A stretch of 64,000 nt of DNA from Syntrophobacteraceae bacterium (GTDB lineage: Bacteria > Desulfobacterota > Syntrophobacteria > Syntrophobacterales > Syntrophobacteraceae): positions 3,289-67,288 of the forward strand of contig JBEKQE010000017.1 in NCBI GenBank assembly GCA_049520035.1. Reading direction: 5' to 3'. Below, piece after piece: positions 3,740 to 32,441 of this stretch (position 1 is the stretch's first letter; each line of letters begins with the position of its first letter). The position numbers and the translations under genes were made by a program. The notes beneath the pieces are model-generated. The model saw only the letters and a program-made list of their open reading frames with translations, made no database searches and was not told the DNA's origin.

Positions 3740-5227
3740 TTGCCGATGCACATAGACCCCGCCAGATTCCCTTGCCTTTCCGCCATTCTGGTAAGCTGCG
3801 CCGTCGGTATGCTGACAATTATGCTGATCCCGCAGGAGCGAAAGCGCCTCATGAAGCAGGTGAGCGTCTTTTTCTCCGGGATTACGCTCCTTTTGACCCT
3901 GTACGTTTTTTTTGCCTATGACAAGGGCCTGGGCGGTCTCCAGTTCGTGGAAAACGTTCAGTGGATTCCCTCTCTTGGCATCAGCTATTTCAATGGAGTT
4001 GACGGATTCAGCGTCCCCAATCTGCTGCTCACGGGCATCGTCTTCTTCACGGGCGTGCTCACGATGTGGGAACTGGAGACGAGGGTAAAAGAGTACTTTG
4101 CCCTCTACTTCCTGCTGGTAACCGGGGTGTTCGGGCTTTTCATGAGCATGGACCTCTTCTTTATATTCGTCTGGTACGACGTCTCCCTTTTCCCCATGTA
4201 CCTGCTGATAGCGGTCTGGGGCACGACCCGAAAAGAATACGGGGCCATGAAGCTGACCCTGTATCTTCTGGCGGGGAGCGCCCTGATTCTGCCTGCCATC
4301 ATTTTTCTCTGGGCAAAGTCGGGCCTTGACACGTTTTCCTTCGTTTCGCTGATGCAGCCGGGACTATTCACTCCACAAGCGCAAAAATTCGCCTTTCTGC
4401 TGCTGTTTTTGGGATTCGGGATCCTGGCGGGCGTCTGGCCTTTGCATACCTGGTCGCCGGTCGGACATGTGGCTGCTCCAACTGGAGTAAGCATGGTGCA
4501 CGCCGGAGTCCTGATGAAAATCGGCGCTTTCGGGGTGCTTCGGGTGGCCATTATGCTCTGCCCCCTGGGGTGGGTTTACTGGGCGCAGCTCATGGCCGTG
4601 CTTGCCGCCACGGGAATAATCTACGGGGCGCTTGCCGGTTTGAGGCAAACCGATCTAAAGTACGTGATCGGATACTCCAGCGTGTCTCACATGGGGGTAG
4701 TGGGCCTGGGCCTGTCGACGGTCACAGTCGAAGGTTTGAACGGCGCGGTGTTCCAGATGTTTGCTCATGGCGTTATGACCGCCCTGCTTTTTTCTTCTGT
4801 CGGCTATATCTACGACCGGACCCATACGAAGCTTATCCCGGAACTTGGCGGCCTCAGCCGGATCATGCCGGTGGCCTCGGCGTTTTTCATAGTAGCCGCC
4901 TTCGCGGGTATGGGCGTTCCCGGACTGGCGAATTTCTGGGGTGAGCTTCTGGTCTTTGTGGCGGCTTTTAGAACTTATCCCGTGCTTGGCGTAATTGCCG
5001 TTTTGGCGCTGGTTGTGACCGCTCTTTTCATGCTGCGCGTCGTTCAGAAGACCTTTTACGGCCCTGAAAACGAGCGCTACGCTCGATTGCCGGATATGTC
5101 TCTGTCGCTGGGGATTCCCCGGATAATACTGGCTGCGGTCCTGCTGATCCTGGGACTTTACCCCTCTGTTCTTTTCGACGTCATCCGGACCGCATCGGTT
5201 CCTTTCATGAGTGGATTGCTAAGATGA
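3740..5227 (+). CDS. nuoM: NADH-quinone oxidoreductase subunit M
   Basis: Antiporter-like membrane subunit (HTWSPVGHVAAPTGVSMVHAGVLMKIGAFG) at the expected operon position. Its stop overlaps the nuoN start. Confidence 0.9.
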   Translation: MPMHIDPARFPCLSAILVSCAVGMLTIMLIPQERKRLMKQVSVFFSGITLLLTLYVFFAYDKGLGGLQFVENVQWIPSLGISYFNGVDGFSVPNLLLTGIVFFTGVLTMWELETRVKEYFALYFLLVTGVFGLFMSMDLFFIFVWYDVSLFPMYLLIAVWGTTRKEYGAMKLTLYLLAGSALILPAIIFLWAKSGLDTFSFVSLMQPGLFTPQAQKFAFLLLFLGFGILAGVWPLHTWSPVGHVAAPTGVSMVHAGVLMKIGAFGVLRVAIMLCPLGWVYWAQLMAVLAATGIIYGALAGLRQTDLKYVIGYSSVSHMGVVGLGLSTVTVEGLNGAVFQMFAHGVMTALLFSSVGYIYDRTHTKLIPELGGLSRIMPVASAFFIVAAFAGMGVPGLANFWGELLVFVAAFRTYPVLGVIAVLALVVTALFMLRVVQKTFYGPENERYARLPDMSLSLGIPRIILAAVLLILGLYPSVLFDVIRTASVPFMSGLLR

Positions 5228-6666
5228 ACTGGATGGTTGCCGGCCCTGAAATATTCTATTTTGCCGCAGGCTTGTTTTTCCTGCTGCTCTCTTTTACGGC
5301 CGAACAGAATCCGGATGCGGCGGCTCGCCGCCGCGTGCATCTGACGGCTCTTTTGATTGCCTCTGTGGGAATACTGGTTTGCCTGGTTTCGGTCGGCATG
5401 GAGGGCCGTCTTTTCATCAGGGCGTACAGGGTGGATATTTTTTCGCAGGTCTTCAAGACGCTGATCTCGCTGGGGCTTTTTCTCATTATCTGCATATGCG
5501 GCGGCATAACCGATATCAGCGAACGCCGCCATCACGAGTTCTATTTCCTGCTCTTTACCTGCACACTGGCGCTGATGCTGCTGGTAAGCGCCGATCATTT
5601 GCTCTCCATCTACATTTCGCTCGAGGTCTCCAGCTACTCGCTTTACATCCTGGTTGCGCTGAGGAAAAACCAGAGTCTCGGGCTGGAAGCCGGAATAAAA
5701 TATTTCCTCGTGGGGACCTTCGCCTCGGCAGTGATGCTTTTGGGAATGGCGCTTCTATATTCCACCTCCGGTACAACCTACCTTACCGATATGGCCGTGG
5801 TGCTGCCGGGGATAATCAACCGGCCGGGCGTAGTAATCGGTTTGCTGTTTACCCTTGGCGGGTTTTTCTTCAAACTGGCGATATTTCCTTTTCATTTCTG
5901 GGCGCCCGATACATACCAGGGGGCTTCGAACCAGGTCGCAGCCTACATCGCTACGGCCTCCAAAGTCGCCGCCATTGCCGTTATTCTGCGGGTGTTGGCC
6001 TTTGCGGGACAGGGCAGCGTTTACCTCGTTCACGCACTGGTGGTCCTGTCCGTTGTCTCGATGACCCTGGGGAACCTTGCGGCCATCGTGCAAAAAGACC
6101 TCAAGAGGCTGCTCGCGTTTTCGACGATAGCGCATTCCGGCTATGTGCTCCTCGGGATACTGGTTTTAAGTCCGGCGGGGTATTCAGGCGCCATATTCTA
6201 TGCGCTTGCTCTGTTGGTAATGGAATTCACCGCCTTTATGGTGATTGTGGAACTTGCTTCCGACGGCCGCAACCTGCAGATAAAAGAACTGGCGGGGCTT
6301 CACCGGCGCTCCCCGATCCTTGCCCTGGCCCTTATGGTGTCGCTTTTCAGCCTCGCCGGCATTCCCCCGACAATAGGGTTTGCGGGAAAATTCCTCGTTT
6401 TTGTGGCGGCCATTCAAAAAGGTTATATAGCGCTGGTTATCATCGCAATGATAAACGTGGTTGTATCGCTCTATTATTACCTGCTGGTGATCAAGGCCGC
6501 CTACCTGCTCGAACCAGCCGAACCGCTTCCGCCCATCGGCGTGTCTTTGCCCAAGAAGCTGCTTGCGGGGGTATCGGCGGCAGTGATTGTGTCAGGCGGT
6601 TTTTTCCCCTACTGGCTGGTGCAACTCGCCCAGACCGCCGCTCGGGCCCTGGTGTGGAAAGGATGA
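5224..6666 (+). CDS. nuoN: NADH-quinone oxidoreductase subunit N
   Basis: 480-aa antiporter-like subunit (FPFHFWAPDTYQGASNQVAAYIATASKVAA) and the last gene of the nuo block. Confidence 0.9.
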   Translation: MNWMVAGPEIFYFAAGLFFLLLSFTAEQNPDAAARRRVHLTALLIASVGILVCLVSVGMEGRLFIRAYRVDIFSQVFKTLISLGLFLIICICGGITDISERRHHEFYFLLFTCTLALMLLVSADHLLSIYISLEVSSYSLYILVALRKNQSLGLEAGIKYFLVGTFASAVMLLGMALLYSTSGTTYLTDMAVVLPGIINRPGVVIGLLFTLGGFFFKLAIFPFHFWAPDTYQGASNQVAAYIATASKVAAIAVILRVLAFAGQGSVYLVHALVVLSVVSMTLGNLAAIVQKDLKRLLAFSTIAHSGYVLLGILVLSPAGYSGAIFYALALLVMEFTAFMVIVELASDGRNLQIKELAGLHRRSPILALALMVSLFSLAGIPPTIGFAGKFLVFVAAIQKGYIALVIIAMINVVVSLYYYLLVIKAAYLLEPAEPLPPIGVSLPKKLLAGVSAAVIVSGGFFPYWLVQLAQTAARALVWKG

Positions 6667-27723: not shown

Positions 27724-28323
27724 TCAACTTTTCATGATTTGAAGAACAACATAGTTTGAACGAATCGATTTACCATCGAGCAGTCCGGCCAGGGATACCG
27801 GGGCGCGGTCCAGTTCTGCTTCCATTACTGCTTCTTGCAGCAGTTCATCCCTGTTCGAAAAAAAGTCCTCCAAATCTGACCCTTTAAGGAGTATCCCGCT
27901 GTTGAGAAGTTCGGGCCCCATTTCTTTCGCAATTGTGTTAAAGAGCTTCAGCTTGAGTATCGCCTCCTCGGTACAGTGGGGGCCCATTTCTGCGGAAGTC
28001 CTCGATCGGAGCGCGGAAATGGGGCTTCCTTTCCGAAGAATTGCGCCTGCAAGCCCCGGCATTGCGGCAGAAAGTGCGATCACGCAGCCGTCTTTGACAA
28101 TTGCCCGATCCAGGTCGTCCACAGCGCTCCCGTCGAGGAAAACTGTCTGCACCTTCTCTTCGAGGTATTTGCGTGAAAAGCCGGCCTCCTCTAAAACTCT
28201 TGCGAGGGGCAATCCCGCCAGGGTCTTTAGATAGACACCCTGCTGAAATATCGGAAAAAGCCTCGACTCCTGGCCGGGTTTCAATTTAAGGCGGAGATTC
28301 CGAATAGATTCAGAACACATCAT
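27724..28323 (-). CDS. Hypothetical protein, last gene of the aroF-tyrA transcription unit
   Basis: 199-aa ORF on the same strand, 27 nt after tyrA. No family was recognised. Confidence 0.5.
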   Translation of the reverse strand: MMCSESIRNLRLKLKPGQESRLFPIFQQGVYLKTLAGLPLARVLEEAGFSRKYLEEKVQTVFLDGSAVDDLDRAIVKDGCVIALSAAMPGLAGAILRKGSPISALRSRTSAEMGPHCTEEAILKLKLFNTIAKEMGPELLNSGILLKGSDLEDFFSNRDELLQEAVMEAELDRAPVSLAGLLDGKSIRSNYVVLQIMKS

Positions 28324-28349: not shown

Positions 28350-29321
28350 CTAAGGTTTTCCCCGCGTCCCTGCGTCCCTGCGTCTTCGCGTCTCCGTGTC
28401 CCCGCGTCCCCGCTTACCGCTGGAGTTCCTTTTATGATTGGCCAACTCAACCGAAAAGTCCAGGATTTCCGAACTTTCGCGGTATGCGTCCGAGCAGAAA
28501 TCCCCAAGATGCCGAGCGCTTCGCTCGAAATCCTCCATAAACCCCTTAAGGTTTCCCGAACTGTAAAATTGTTCATAGACCTCCAGGCCATCCTTCAACG
28601 CGGAAAGAATCTCTTCGGTATTGGGATTCATCTGGGTGATGGCAGCATAGAGTTCCGGACTTTGCGCGAAAATCCTCCCGACGAGGTTCATTTCGATGCG
28701 GTAGCTCGGGCTTGTATAATTCAGAGTTTCGTCTATGTCTACATCGAGCTTTCTCAAGGTCCTTCCGATGAGCATGGTCGTAAGGTGGAAAAGCACCTGG
28801 ATGATGCCCATCATCCTGTCGTGTTCCACCGGGCTGCATTCCTTGACCCGGATGCCGCTTGAGGTAAAAAGCGCGCGCAGCTTCCGCCACTGCGCCTGGC
28901 CGATGCGAACGGGACAGGCGGCAAGAGTCTGGCCGGTAAAGCTCGATATTCGGCCTCCAAACATTGGGTGAAGCCCGACGACGCAAGCGGGGGACTTAAG
29001 CATCTCTTCCACGGGGGCGGTCTTCAGGCTGGTCAGGTCCATCAGGAGCTGACCCGGCCGGGTATGGGGAACGAGTCTTCTGATTATCTCGACGGTCTTG
29101 TGAAGCGGCACGGCAAAAATGACTATATCGGATTCATGTACAGCCCGCTCGGGCGTAAGCGCCGTACCCAGGTCGGCAATATTGACGTGAAATCCATGCG
29201 AGCTGAAGAACTTTGAAAAAAGCCGGCCCATTTCGCCCTGCCCGCCGATTATCCCGATTACGGAGCGCTTATTCCACGATCGGCTTGAGTCGGTTGGGCC
29301 GCAACAGTGAGTGCCATCCAT
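28350..29321 (-). CDS. tyrA: Prephenate dehydrogenase
   Basis: Rossmann IGIIGGQGEMGRLFSKFF, HPMFG and HDRMMGIIQVL motifs. The last ~20 codons (GKRGRGDTETRRRRDAGTRGKP) are read from an octamer repeat. Confidence 0.85.
   Translation of the reverse strand: MDGTHCCGPTDSSRSWNKRSVIGIIGGQGEMGRLFSKFFSSHGFHVNIADLGTALTPERAVHESDIVIFAVPLHKTVEIIRRLVPHTRPGQLLMDLTSLKTAPVEEMLKSPACVVGLHPMFGGRISSFTGQTLAACPVRIGQAQWRKLRALFTSSGIRVKECSPVEHDRMMGIIQVLFHLTTMLIGRTLRKLDVDIDETLNYTSPSYRIEMNLVGRIFAQSPELYAAITQMNPNTEEILSALKDGLEVYEQFYSSGNLKGFMEDFERSARHLGDFCSDAYRESSEILDFSVELANHKRNSSGKRGRGDTETRRRRDAGTRGKP
28360..28413. repeat. Octamer-periodic tract (GCGTCCCT/GCGTCTTC/GCGTCTCC/GTGTCCCC/GCGTCCCC)
   Basis: Six consecutive 8-nt units, from the same octamer family as the arrays at 36825, 48727 and 54036 (opposite strand). 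Confidence 0.85.
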
Positions 29322-29355
29322 ACTTTGTTCCTTTAACCTGTACGCCCATGTCCTT

Positions 29356-30369
29356 TCAGATAAACCGGCCGACCGCTTCGGCGACCCGGCGGCATTCCTC
29401 GATCATGGCAAAAAATACTTTCGGGCGAAGAGATTGAGGACCGTCGCTCATTGCTTCCTCAGGACGCACGTGCACTTCAACGAGGAGCCCATCGGCGCCG
29501 GCCGCGATGGCCGCCCTCGAGACTGCGGGCACAAGGTCCGCCCTCCCCACCGCGTGACTCGGGTCAACGATTACCGGAAGGTGTGTGAGTAGCTTCAGAA
29601 GCGGCACCGCGCTGATATCGAGGGTATTTCGGGTTTCGGTTTCGAAGGTGCGGATTCCCCTTTCGCACAGAATTACCTTCTCGTTTCCCTGCGCCATGAT
29701 GTATTCGGCCGACATGAGAAATTCCTTTATGGTCGCGCAGAGGCCGCGTTTCAGGATGACCGGTTTATCGATGTTGCCAACCTCAGTGAGGAGCCTGAAA
29801 TTTGCCATGTTGCGAGTACCGATCTGGACGATGTCCGCATACTTGCAAACCATCACGGTGTCTCTTGGATCCATGAGTTCGGTAACTATCTTCATACCGG
29901 TTTTTTCGCGCACTCCAGCAAGGTATTTCAACCCCTTTTCGCCCCAGCCCTGGAACGCGTAGGGTGAAGTGCGTGGTTTGAAAGCGCCGCCGCGCAAAAA
30001 ATGAACCCCGGCAGGCTCGATCTCCTCGGCGATCTCCTCGAGAACTTCCCGGCTCTCGACCGCACACGGCCCTGCGATAATCTGGATCTGAAGGCCGCCG
30101 ATCTCAAGGCCGTTTATATGCACCACGCTGTTTTCAGGCTTGAACTCCCTGCTGACCAGCTTGTACGGTTTCAAGATGGGGAGCACCTTCTCCACTCCTG
30201 GAAAGGACTCCATAGGGATCTCCGCTATAACCCGTTCATCTCCAATCGCACCCACAATGGTCCGGTGCTCGCCTTTGGAGATATGTGCCCGGAGGTTCAT
30301 GTCCTCGAGGCGTCGGACTATTCTGAGCAGGTCTTCTTCCAGGTGATCCGGACGCATTACAATGATCAT
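29356..30369 (-). CDS. aroF: 3-deoxy-7-phosphoheptulonate (DAHP) synthase, class I-beta with N-terminal regulatory domain
   Basis: N-terminal ferredoxin-like domain (MIIVMRPDHLEEDLLRIVRRLEDMNLRAHISKGEHRTIVGAIGD), AGPCAVES, and KPRTSPYAFQG motifs. Confidence 0.9.
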   Translation of the reverse strand: MIIVMRPDHLEEDLLRIVRRLEDMNLRAHISKGEHRTIVGAIGDERVIAEIPMESFPGVEKVLPILKPYKLVSREFKPENSVVHINGLEIGGLQIQIIAGPCAVESREVLEEIAEEIEPAGVHFLRGGAFKPRTSPYAFQGWGEKGLKYLAGVREKTGMKIVTELMDPRDTVMVCKYADIVQIGTRNMANFRLLTEVGNIDKPVILKRGLCATIKEFLMSAEYIMAQGNEKVILCERGIRTFETETRNTLDISAVPLLKLLTHLPVIVDPSHAVGRADLVPAVSRAAIAAGADGLLVEVHVRPEEAMSDGPQSLRPKVFFAMIEECRRVAEAVGRFI

Positions 30370-30415
30370 GACGATTTTCCCCCACAGTTCTTTTCAATTC
30401 GGAACTATCGCATAC

Positions 30416-30451
30416 AAAAAAAGCCGTGGGCACTCCAGGCGCTCACGGCTT
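30416..30451 (-). terminator. Intrinsic terminator / attenuator hairpin 45 nt upstream of the aroF start
   Basis: The minus strand reads GAAGCCGUG-A-GCGC-CUGGA-GUGC-C-CACGGCUUU followed by a U7 run. Confidence 0.6.
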
Positions 30452-30472
30452 CAAAACAAACAAATTGAATTG

Positions 30473-30547
30473 TCAGGACCAGAGCATACCCGAGACCTTC
30501 CCTTCGCTGGGGTAAAAATAAGCGTAATAATAAAATCCGGTGAGCAT
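30473..30547 (-). promoter_or_regulatory. Candidate leader peptide ORF MLTGFYYYAYFYPSEGKVSGMLWS
   Basis: AGGAGAG lies 4 nt before the ATG. Seven of eight consecutive codons (5-12) encode Tyr or Phe. The ORF ends 22 nt before the terminator hairpin. Confidence 0.55.
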
Positions 30548-30675
30548 TATTCTCTCCTACCCGGTTCAGAATAGACTTCATTGCGGGCATTTTGTCAAGA
30601 TAAATTCCAGACAAATTCCAAGACAGGAAACCTTCGAAAACCGTGCTTTCCGCCGATACGCCATTGCCTGAGGAC

Positions 30676-30951
30676 CTACACGTATTCCAGTTTCCGCATC
30701 AGCACGGATTCGTATCCGACCTCCAGCTCGCCGCAGCCAAAAACCCTTTCTCCATCCCTCGTTTTTGCCCGAACGCAGACATCCTCCACCTTCTCGTTGA
30801 TTCCGGCTGAATCGCCGGAAAAGTACAGAATCAGGTCCGGTATGCCGTCATCATTTAAATCCCTCAGACTGCGGGCATAAATCTCGGGGTCGGTCATATC
30901 GTCAGCAGGCCCGACGTTGCCAGGTCCGATTCTCACCCAACAAGGATCCAC
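30676..30951 (-). CDS. Hypothetical protein with an FG-GAP/VCBS-like Asp-rich segment (DLNDDGIPDLILYF)
   Basis: ORF with a GTG start. The same frame continues upstream through a TAG (30988-30990) to an SD-preceded ATG at 31017. Confidence 0.35.
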   Translation of the reverse strand: MDPCWVRIGPGNVGPADDMTDPEIYARSLRDLNDDGIPDLILYFSGDSAGINEKVEDVCVRAKTRDGERVFGCGELEVGYESVLMRKLEYV

Positions 30952-31171
30952 CCGCCCGGGGTCGAAGTCGAAACCGTGTGTTAAAACCTACCCATGCTCT
31001 TTTTTTATTTTGTCCATGATCTTCCTCCAGAATTAAAAAACGGAACTCTAAAAAATAATTTAAGAGGAGAGAAAGAATGTTGTCAATCGAGGTAAATTCT
31101 TTGATGTCTTCAATCCGCCGACTCCTGTCAGTCCTTTGACTCGGCGCCTGGGCGCCTGACCCGCGAACCGG

Positions 31172-31885
31172 CTATTCGAGTTTTCGCAGAAAATCATGGA
31201 GGATATCCTCGGCGCGATAGCCTTTAAGGCGTGCGATATTAACCAGTCGAGCAAGGAGGCGGCCCAGATCGTCCGGAGAATCGAGCCGGTCGGACTCGAT
31301 CTTGCTCGCCAGTTCGCCACTTTCCCTGGCAAATTCACGCCCCTGTTTCCGGATGTCGTTCCAATTCACATCTTCTTTTTGCGAGAGGCGCGAAAGGATT
31401 CTATGCGCGCGAATAAGGGCCGGGAGCGAGTCCGGGACTGGTTCGGCTGCCTTGCCGCTTGCGCGCTTCTCCCCGGCTTTTATCATTTCCCAGTTATCTT
31501 TAACCTCCTCGGCCGAATTGACGCTCGTTCCACCGAAAACGTGCGGATGCCTGCGGATCATTTTTTCGCTGATTCTGCGGCAAACTTCTTCCAGGCTGAA
31601 ATCTCCCCGTTGCTCGTATAAATAAACGAGGAAAAACGCCATAAAGAGAACGTCCCCGAGTTCTTCGGCTACCTCTTCCACTTTTTTCGCCCGCACTGCC
31701 GCAGCGGCTTCGTGGGATTCTTCAACCAGGTAGGTCTGGATTGTTTCAGGGGTCTGCTTCCGGTCCCAGGGGCAACCGGTTTCACTTCGTAGGCGCTCGA
31801 TTATCCGGAGGATTTCCTCTATCGCATTCCATCGGTCAGTTTTTGTTTCTTTCACCTTTTTCCTTTGAATCAGAACCGTGTCCAA
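31172..31885 (-). CDS. mazG: Nucleoside triphosphate pyrophosphohydrolase MazG
   Basis: GCPWDRKQTPETIQTYLVEESHEAAAAV and the second half-domain. It overlaps the cvpA 3' end by 50 nt, so the true start may be the GTG at 31855. Confidence 0.85.
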   Translation of the reverse strand: MDTVLIQRKKVKETKTDRWNAIEEILRIIERLRSETGCPWDRKQTPETIQTYLVEESHEAAAAVRAKKVEEVAEELGDVLFMAFFLVYLYEQRGDFSLEEVCRRISEKMIRRHPHVFGGTSVNSAEEVKDNWEMIKAGEKRASGKAAEPVPDSLPALIRAHRILSRLSQKEDVNWNDIRKQGREFARESGELASKIESDRLDSPDDLGRLLARLVNIARLKGYRAEDILHDFLRKLE

Positions 31886-32441
31886 AGAAGGAGTCCAGCA
31901 GAGTCGATGTTCGGTCGGTCAGCAGCTTTTCGACCTCCTTCTGCTTTTTGGAAAGCTCCTGCTGCACCTTTACGGGCGCCAATTTGAAGAGGAATTGGGA
32001 TGCCTCCCTGACTCTGGGCGCAAGCGTTGACTGTGCGATGAGCGGCGGGTTGCCGCCGAAAGAAAACAACGTCAAAAAAGAGATCGCCACAATCGCAAAA
32101 AGGAACGCTTTGCAGAATCCGATTATCGCGCCACAGAGCCGGTCAAGAAACCCAAGACCGGCGCTGTGTAAGATCCTGGCAACCCAGAAACCCGCCACCG
32201 CAATACTGAACCAGGTTAACAGAAACAGCAGGATGAAGCCGAGGGGTCCGGCGGCAGTAGCCGAAATAGTAGGGAACTGCCTGGTTATAAAAAATCCCAC
32301 GGGCTGATACTGGTGAGAGGCTACAAGGAAACCTGTTAAAATGCCGGCGATTCCGATTATCTGAGAAATGGCGCCGCGCATAAGGCCTCTGAGCACCCAG
32401 AAAGCTCCTGCAAAGATCAGAATCCAGTCGAGAATGTTCAT
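31836..32441 (-). CDS. cvpA: CvpA-family membrane protein
   Basis: MNILDWILIFAGAFWVLRGLMRGAISQIIGIAGILTGF, 4 TM segments. The start is set at the internal Met. Confidence 0.8.
   Translation of the reverse strand: MNILDWILIFAGAFWVLRGLMRGAISQIIGIAGILTGFLVASHQYQPVGFFITRQFPTISATAAGPLGFILLFLLTWFSIAVAGFWVARILHSAGLGFLDRLCGAIIGFCKAFLFAIVAISFLTLFSFGGNPPLIAQSTLAPRVREASQFLFKLAPVKVQQELSKKQKEVEKLLTDRTSTLLDSFFGHGSDSKEKGERNKN

Follow-up and report, generated by a model that had tools for sequence, protein, structure and literature searches.

We analyzed a 64,000-nucleotide (nt) stretch of DNA (hereafter, the window) from a Syntrophobacteraceae bacterium of the phylum Desulfobacterota (assembly GCA_049520035.1, contig JBEKQE010000017.1, positions 3,289 to 67,288). 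The element under study lies on the minus strand, immediately upstream of the gene pair aroF-tyrA, and is a candidate leader-peptide transcription attenuator that was first noticed in an initial annotation of the sequence. In the direction of transcription, a promoter is followed by a Shine–Dalgarno (SD) sequence, a 24-codon open reading frame (ORF), a 13-bp hairpin with seven U residues, and aroF-tyrA, as follows.

30593-30598, minus strand: −35 hexamer TTGACA of the leader promoter (sequence reading)
30568-30573, minus strand: −10-like hexamer TATTCT, after a 19-nt spacer (sequence reading)
30552-30558, minus strand: SD sequence AGGAGAG of the leader ORF, followed by four nucleotides and the ATG (sequence reading)
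30473-30547, minus strand: leader ORF of 24 codons plus TGA, ATG at 30547, product MLTGFYYYAYFYPSEGKVSGMLWS
30512-30535, minus strand: regulatory codon run TTT TAT TAT TAC GCT TAT TTT TAC (five Tyr, two Phe)
30416-30452, minus strand: intrinsic terminator (5' arm 30452-30439, loop 30438-30434, 3' arm 30433-30420, U7 30422-30416)
29356-30369, minus strand: aroF, 3-deoxy-D-arabino-heptulosonate 7-phosphate (DAHP) synthase with an N-terminal ferredoxin-like regulatory domain (Pfam), first gene of the regulated pair
28350-29321, minus strand: tyrA-like prephenate dehydrogenase gene, 34 nt 3' of aroF (Pfam), second gene of the regulated pair

Leader, terminator, and operon in the window

Codons 5-12 of the leader ORF read F Y Y Y A Y F Y, so that seven of eight encode Tyr or Phe, and this run is the putative ribosome stall site. 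Among the 1336 ORFs of at least 10 amino acids (aa) in the window, only the leader ORF reaches seven aromatics within eight residues, and seven Phe/Tyr codons occurred in one of 127,954 eight-codon windows counted over all six frames of the whole window, so that chance is excluded as the origin of this frame. Next in aromatic content among the small ORFs is 5357-5464 (plus strand), which was discarded as an off-frame artefact within the long ORF 5224-6666. From the look of its sequence, the latter resembles a hydrophobic membrane protein; no family search was made for it.

The terminator hairpin consists of 9 + 4 bp around one A/C mismatch with a 5-nt loop (−19.6 kcal/mol). Its stem begins 20-21 nt past the leader stop, and the aroF ATG at 30369 lies 46 nt beyond the end of the U-run. 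The transcription start would be expected near 30561, about 14 nt 5' of the leader ATG. DAHP synthase is the first enzyme of the shikimate pathway, and the Pfam domains of the two products (DAHP_synth_1, 1.7e-77, and DAHP_snth_FXD, 1.3e-21, for aroF; PDH_N, 3.2e-14, and PDH_C, 1.2e-12, for tyrA) agree with the operon of DAHP synthase and prephenate dehydrogenase that the initial annotation had proposed. The promoter with its 19-nt spacer was likewise present where that annotation had placed it, and sequence reading confirmed the 24-codon ORF at 30547-30473 with its AGGAGAG and its seven Tyr/Phe codons in eight. The GC-rich 13-bp hairpin with U7 also stood, with a span read here as 30452-30420 and the U7 at 30422-30416, and two distances were revised: the 22 nt given from stop to hairpin became the 20-21 nt above, and the 45 nt given from hairpin end to aroF became 46 nt from U-run to ATG.

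A simple promoter/terminator pattern scanner listed neither the leader promoter nor the hairpin. The promoter was omitted because its 19-nt spacer is outside the 16-18 nt range of the scanner, and the hairpin probably because of its interior mismatch; the omission is no argument against either feature. In the flanks of the unit, a 91-aa ORF upstream (30676-30951, minus strand) and a 199-aa ORF that begins 26 nt past tyrA (27724-28323, minus strand) were without Pfam matches, and the 199-aa ORF is retained downstream of tyrA in five relatives (L004, L008, L011, L030, and L040).

Conservation of the leader and its alternative RNA pairings

Relatives were collected by a protein scan with AroF, keeping one genome per species, which gave 80 loci. 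The structural alignment (A1) holds 43 sequences and the whole family set 66 distinct sequences. The closest loci (83-96% AroF identity) belong to metagenome-assembled genomes (MAGs) from peat and soil labeled Syntrophobacteraceae or 'delta proteobacterium'. A Tyr-rich mini-ORF with some Phe codons and an SD sequence, followed by the same terminator, precedes aroF in 42 of the 42 Syntrophobacteraceae loci with enough upstream DNA (for example, leaders MPGKFYYYAYFYPGEGNASGMLGS, MHTGFYYYYYFYPL, and MVAKYYRYYYCSGP). An intact leader ORF with a start codon was found in all 66 distinct members, with an SD sequence in most, and GGAG is kept 4-8 nt before the leader ATG across A1. The promoter is conserved as well: in 42 of 43 sequences, a TTGACA precedes the leader ATG with almost constant spacing (group A, about 44 nt; group B, about 54 nt). 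T-A-T-T-(C/T)-T is kept at the same spacing in group A, L031 has a perfect TATAAT at that spacing, and the group B equivalent is TAnnGT at 18 nt. The genes aroF and tyrA are adjacent in every Syntrophobacteraceae locus that extends far enough. The terminator was found in all relatives, both in A1 and among the metagenome members described below; 93% of its cells in A1 are paired, with changes on both sides in five pairs. The interval between leader stop and terminator is only about 20-56 nt and poorly conserved. Lack of conservation had been named beforehand as a possible refutation of the attenuator, and what was found is the mini-ORF with the terminator in 42/42 loci and on about 35 metagenome contigs. 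Among the more distant AroF loci of the 80 (Omnitrophota, Acidimicrobiia, and others), the leader element was not present.

Some relatives differ in the DNA between terminator and aroF. Insertions of about 90-160 nt lie there in L004, L005, L007, and L040, compared with the 46 nt in the window. In a diverged subgroup (L035:2876-3003, L036, L038, L039, L041, L047, and L061), a second hairpin is conserved between the first terminator and aroF (GGGCCGYGGGA...UCCC.RCGGCCC, with a U-run after it), and a third hairpin abuts the aroF SD site. These extra stems, none of which is in the window, change compensatorily between loci and may be extra regulatory layers. The MAG CAWEHK01 contains three aroF(-tyrA) copies (L035, L041, and L047), each with its own Tyr-rich leader, which could be paralogs or mixed strains in the bin.

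The initial annotation could not identify an antiterminator by eye. We predicted it with RNAalifold on alignments from which the terminator 3' arm had been removed and with RNAfold on the correspondingly truncated RNA, and it was found as a helix between a segment of the leader ORF (region 2) and the terminator 5' arm with loop nucleotides (region 3).

30492-30505, minus strand: small hairpin GARG-N6-CYUC, just 5' of region 2 (alignment columns 74-77 with 84-87)
30479-30492, minus strand: region 2, antiterminator 5' strand, CGGGUAUGCUCUGG (CGGGUAUGCUCNGG), holding the near-invariant GGUAUG (30485-30490)
30473-30475, minus strand: leader stop UGA, beginning 3 nt beyond region 2
30435-30449, minus strand: region 3, antiterminator 3' strand, made of the terminator 5' arm and loop nucleotides

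In the window, the antiterminator has 14 bp (30493-30478 with 30449-30435) and −18.3 kcal/mol, compared with −19.6 kcal/mol for the terminator, and the two are mutually exclusive, both using 30449-30435. For the main group, RNAalifold joined region 2 to the 5' arm and loop; the diverged eight-locus subgroup independently gave the same antiterminator from different sequences (GGGAUAUGUGAGGCU with AGCCGUGGGUAUCCC). Pairing is seen in 88.3% of the antiterminator cells of A1, compared with 30-56% for slid partners, and the pairing partners covary at columns 87-156 (CG 24, GC 9, UG 3, AU 2), 88-155 (AU 17, GU 12, GC 11), and 90-153 (GC 32, AU 6, GU 5). Because columns 154-156 are terminator loop, the terminator stem does not account for this covariation.

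Duplex energies support the same pairing. The duplex of region 2 with the arm averages −16.2 kcal/mol, compared with about −6 to −15 kcal/mol for shuffled region 2 (65 sequences). The cognate duplexes sum to −1050.8 kcal/mol, whereas permuted combinations averaged −956.8 ± 16.3 kcal/mol and none of 5000 reached the observed value, a significance that is inflated by the relatedness of the sequences. A class matrix shows that, in classes B and C, region 2 pairs preferentially with the arm of the same class. The check for a competing structure proposed in the initial annotation yielded the region 2 helix (88% versus 30-56% when slid), with the cognate combination winning in 5000 of 5000 permutations. 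Duplex energies were used instead of counting any upstream partner of the 5' arm, a count that proved too unspecific, as minimum-energy folds choose long-range partners (in the window fold, for example, the first leader codons GCUCAC).

Region 2 lies within a coding sequence in the window, but its conservation is not that of a peptide. Peptide length in A1 varies from 14 to 28 aa, and at the protein level nothing but the aromatic run is conserved. Lineages whose leader stops early still keep the following stretch, GCUUCGGGUAUGCUCGGGUCCUGA (region 2), untranslated at the nucleotide level, which indicates that selection acts on region 2 at the RNA level. The spacer leading from there to the terminator varies freely. 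We also considered the AUG of GGUAUG as a universally conserved start codon and rejected this, since it is ACG in three long-form relatives; as a start codon it is retained as a hypothesis for the short-form leaders alone. In the small hairpin just 5' of region 2, each of the four pairs shows changes in both strands, and A1 has 81% of the cells paired; it is weak in the window (two Watson–Crick pairs and one wobble) and may be a pause or spacer hairpin.

In all 66 members, a stop lies 1-5 codons past the AUG of GGUAUG in the same frame (TGA 47, TAG 10, TAA 9), whereas the first stop in either other frame falls at varying positions or is missing; the placement of a stop just past region 2 is therefore itself conserved. 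In the window, 19 nt lie between the end of the last Tyr codon (30512) and region 2. A ribosome covers roughly 12-15 nt on each side of its A site. Assuming footprints of this size, a ribosome stalled anywhere in the run would leave region 2 free, and one at the stop would cover it.

The scaffold extends beyond the collected loci. A metagenome scan with a pattern of region 2 and terminator alone returned 85 stretches, of which about 35 are true members (23 with new sequences), all with aromatic-rich leaders. Most of these lie before aroF-tyrA, some of them in lineages whose AroF identity is only 76-83% (for example, MSRNTWQPVYLYYYYYYCSYHRGGGAPGMR). The same scaffold was also found before aroK-aroC-DAHP synthase-aroB (leader ...SWQGYYFYF...), before aroK (leader ...CFFWYYFGG...), and before a lone aroF with a Phe-rich leader (...SSYFAFITFNFWCGFNF...). 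The members before these other shikimate operons, with mixed Phe/Trp/Tyr leaders apart from the Phe-rich one of the lone aroF, are the following.

L113:12380-12552
L130:6160-6300, minus strand
L152:13975-14145, minus strand
L082
L090:2902-3080

The leaders before aroF-tyrA contain 341 Tyr, 90 Phe, and 13 Trp codons, and the remaining leaders, including three on contigs too short to show the operon, contain 21 Tyr, 21 Phe, and 7 Trp codons. Such a match between codons and pathway product is predicted by translational amino-acid sensing and not by a protein- or ligand-binding RNA. Two further aromatic leaders with a different scaffold precede aroF in Planctomycetota and are candidates: one in an anammox MAG (L071:2780-3000; ...SYYYPFNYFPGGGRS, with a −26.7 kcal/mol terminator) and one in a Phycisphaerae MAG (L076:15-208; ...SFFGFFWF..., with a −19.3 kcal/mol terminator).

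Proposed attenuation and competing explanations

The unit combines an SD-bearing leader ORF, a codon run for products of the pathway, an intrinsic terminator, a mutually exclusive antiterminator, and a stall/stop geometry, which together are the marks of an attenuator. We consider it very likely that this is a leader-peptide transcription attenuator that ties aroF-tyrA to charged tRNA-Tyr and, to a lesser degree, to tRNA-Phe. The Tyr/Phe-sensing function suggested in the initial annotation thus gains support from the conservation, the antiterminator, and the placement of the stop. According to this model, a ribosome would load on the leader at once after transcription start. When Tyr-tRNA is plentiful, it would read through the eight-codon run to the UGA at 30475-30473 and cover region 2; the terminator 5' arm, left without an upstream partner, would pair with the 3' arm, and RNA polymerase would release the transcript at the U-run (30422-30416). 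When Tyr-tRNA is scarce, the ribosome would stall at the UAU/UAC codons (30532-30512) with its front edge reaching to about 30500, and the naked region 2 would pair with the emerging 5' arm and loop before the 3' arm exists. The terminator would then be blocked, and polymerase would continue into aroF-tyrA. The stalling, the ribosome footprints, the kinetic competition, and the direction of the response are the parts of this model that we infer.

Several observations weigh against this attenuator model or sit uneasily with it. The evidence base is wholly computational, and the 19-nt promoter spacer is unusual. Equilibrium folding favors the terminator almost whatever ribosome mask is applied (probability about 1 for most sequences), and the whole-leader fold is not more stable than that of shuffled sequence (z = −0.61). 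The near-invariance of GGUAUG across 66 sequences is unexplained by pairing, as its partner differs between lineages. The simple model also fails to account for about 16 relatives whose leader stops 10-30 nt short of region 2. Finally, no convincing 1:2 anti-antiterminator hairpin was found in the window.

Since equilibrium folds always favor the terminator, the switch would have to be kinetic; equilibrium folds with ribosome masks cannot discriminate the states and were replaced here by transcripts without the 3' arm. Classical attenuators likewise choose their helix kinetically.

For the anti-antiterminator, the best duplex of the leader start with region 2 in the window has −11.2 kcal/mol, compared with a shuffled mean of −12.9 kcal/mol. 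Because the window has no convincing helix of this kind, an untranslated leader would probably read through, unlike the trp attenuator of Escherichia coli. In a subset of relatives, the leader SD-spacer/start GAGCRUAUG is complementary to region 2 (GUAUGCUC): the duplex beats 95% of shuffles in 17 of 65 sequences, with energies down to −20 to −25 kcal/mol. In the alignment, this helix has 68% of its cells paired and no covariation above shuffles, and as a general anti-antiterminator it was rejected, being supported in that subset alone. Pairing of the CCCC of the Pro codon past the run with region 2 was also rejected as a 1:2 helix, as RNAalifold prefers a local CCCC:GGGG hairpin and the motif is missing in group B.

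The short-form leaders and the invariant GGUAUG may have additional meanings. In some of the approximately 16 short forms, the Tyr-rich ORF uses another frame than the AUG of GGUAUG, and in one subgroup this AUG is a bare start-stop (AUG-UGA, AUG-UAA, or AUG-UAG). A two-step relay is conceivable but doubtful, in which the ribosome, having finished the Tyr ORF, would start again at the AUG of GGUAUG and come to rest on region 2. If this were true, termination would depend on termination–reinitiation coupling, a design undescribed for classical attenuators, and the relay would change how attenuation is understood; otherwise, the concept is unaltered. In some lineages, GGUAUG might additionally base-pair with the ribosome-binding site of the leader itself.

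The same two features lend some weight to a different explanation, namely that a trans-acting factor (a protein, tRNA, or small ligand) binds region 2, with leader translation being secondary or modulatory. The near-complete invariance of GGUAUG despite lineage-specific partners points to a constraint beyond base pairing, and the short-form leaders keep region 2 untranslated. However, all 66 members keep a start codon, an intact ORF, and the aromatic run (with an SD sequence in most), and a binding factor does not predict that the composition of the codon run tracks the content of the operon. The space for an aptamer is also limited, since the transcript start leaves no room upstream and the interval between stop and terminator is only about 20-56 nt and poorly conserved. 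In addition, no T-box or other Rfam family matched: a search of 29000-32000 at E up to 10 gave no relevant leader, T-box, or riboswitch, and a search of the whole window at gathering thresholds gave no match, with the T-box of L067 (see below) as positive control. We therefore regard a trans-acting factor as improbable.

We judge it very improbable that the terminator is constitutive and only partial, or that the peptide or the terminated leader RNA has a function of its own, in either case without tyrosine sensing. The dominance of the terminator at equilibrium whatever the ribosome position would suit such an element, and the available accounts of peTrpL and rnTrpL of Sinorhizobium, a leader peptide and a leader RNA with roles in trans, provide precedents. 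Conversely, the peptide is not conserved outside the Tyr run and can be as short as 14 aa, a covarying antiterminator would be purposeless in a constitutive terminator, and the codon content matches the pathway. That the hairpin merely terminates the upstream 91-aa ORF (30951-30676), with which it shares the strand and from which no other terminator separates it, and that the aromatic ORF is a chance frame, is hardly tenable and already contradicted by the comparative data: a conserved promoter (TTGACA in 42/43), SD sequence, and ATG lie in between, the ORF is the extreme of 1336 and conserved in 66 sequences, and about half of the relative loci do not have the 91-aa ORF and still keep leader and terminator with aroF-tyrA, which indicates that the hairpin is part of a promoter–leader–terminator unit traveling with these genes.

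Relation to known leaders and significance

The leader-peptide attenuator proposed here resembles the trpL, pheL-pheA, and hisL systems, in which a run of codons for the end product, a terminator, and an antiterminator using the terminator 5' arm are arranged such that the position of the ribosome decides (PMC11802643). It shares with them the codon-run leader, the terminator before the first gene, and the antiterminator that uses the same 5' arm. Unlike these systems, it would sense mainly Tyr, its host belongs to Desulfobacterota and not Gammaproteobacteria, and it has no sequence or Rfam similarity to them; the covariance models of the Rfam leader families for Trp, His, Leu, Thr, and Phe had no match in the window region. 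It also differs in lacking a clear 1:2 hairpin in the window, where termination seems to depend on region 2 being occupied by the ribosome that has reached the stop codon.

Closer comparisons concern aroF itself. In Corynebacterium glutamicum, the aroR leader before aroF contains Phe-Tyr-Phe codons and is described as responding when Phe, but not Tyr, is limiting (Neshat et al. 2014, as reported in PMC11802643). Compared by description, aroR is likewise a leader-peptide attenuator with aromatic codons in front of a DAHP synthase operon, but it has three aromatic codons, whereas the Syntrophobacteraceae leaders have 5-9 Tyr codons and an operon that includes tyrA, in another phylum. The Acholeplasma element uORFC-13-1 is a computationally identified upstream ORF with a terminator, found upstream of aroF only, for which aromatic sensing via translation speed was proposed (PMC8632094). 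Although it is computational like the leader in the window, it is Phe-based, occurs in Acholeplasma (Mollicutes) and unidentified environmental sequences, and has another RNA scaffold. For E. coli, an attenuation of aroF-tyrA by Tyr-tRNA was proposed (Camakaris et al. 1980, as cited in PMC8632094 and PMC2659441). The operon pair and the proposed signal, charged tRNA-Tyr, are the same as here, but the E. coli proposal was physiological, whereas the case in the window rests on an identified leader. To our knowledge, that proposal was never based on an identified Tyr-rich leader peptide, and aroF-tyrA of E. coli is mainly repressed by TyrR.

Pectinatus cerevisiiphilus solves this regulatory problem in another way, with a T-box in front of its aroF ortholog (L067:2697-2928; RF00230, 136 bits). 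Like the proposed attenuator, the T-box before aroF in Firmicutes makes a choice between terminator and antiterminator that reports tRNA charging. T-boxes bind uncharged tRNA directly and need no translation.

In the literature searched, we found no established leader with a run of tyrosine codons and no paper that ties Syntrophobacter or Deltaproteobacteria to such a leader, although the survey of Lopatovskaya et al. (2010) may cover them. This is consistent with the view of the initial annotation that the mechanism was undescribed for this lineage, yet aroF attenuation has precedents in Corynebacterium and Acholeplasma. The mechanism is canonical, and a Tyr-specific attenuator in Syntrophobacteraceae is probably undescribed.

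With this leader, tyrosine would join the few amino acids that leader-peptide attenuators read, and the mechanism would extend to Desulfobacterota, specifically to Syntrophobacteraceae, uncultured syntrophs of peat and sediment whose gene regulation is almost unknown. For annotation, the small ORF is one that gene callers may miss, and the premature 3' end could be misread in transcriptomes; the scaffold, with 66 distinct sequences outside Rfam, is in effect a new RNA family that can be used for this purpose. In addition, the shift in codons from Tyr-rich leaders before aroF-tyrA to mixed Phe/Trp/Tyr leaders before aroK-aroC-DAHP synthase-aroB provides a comparative test of how attenuator specificity evolves.

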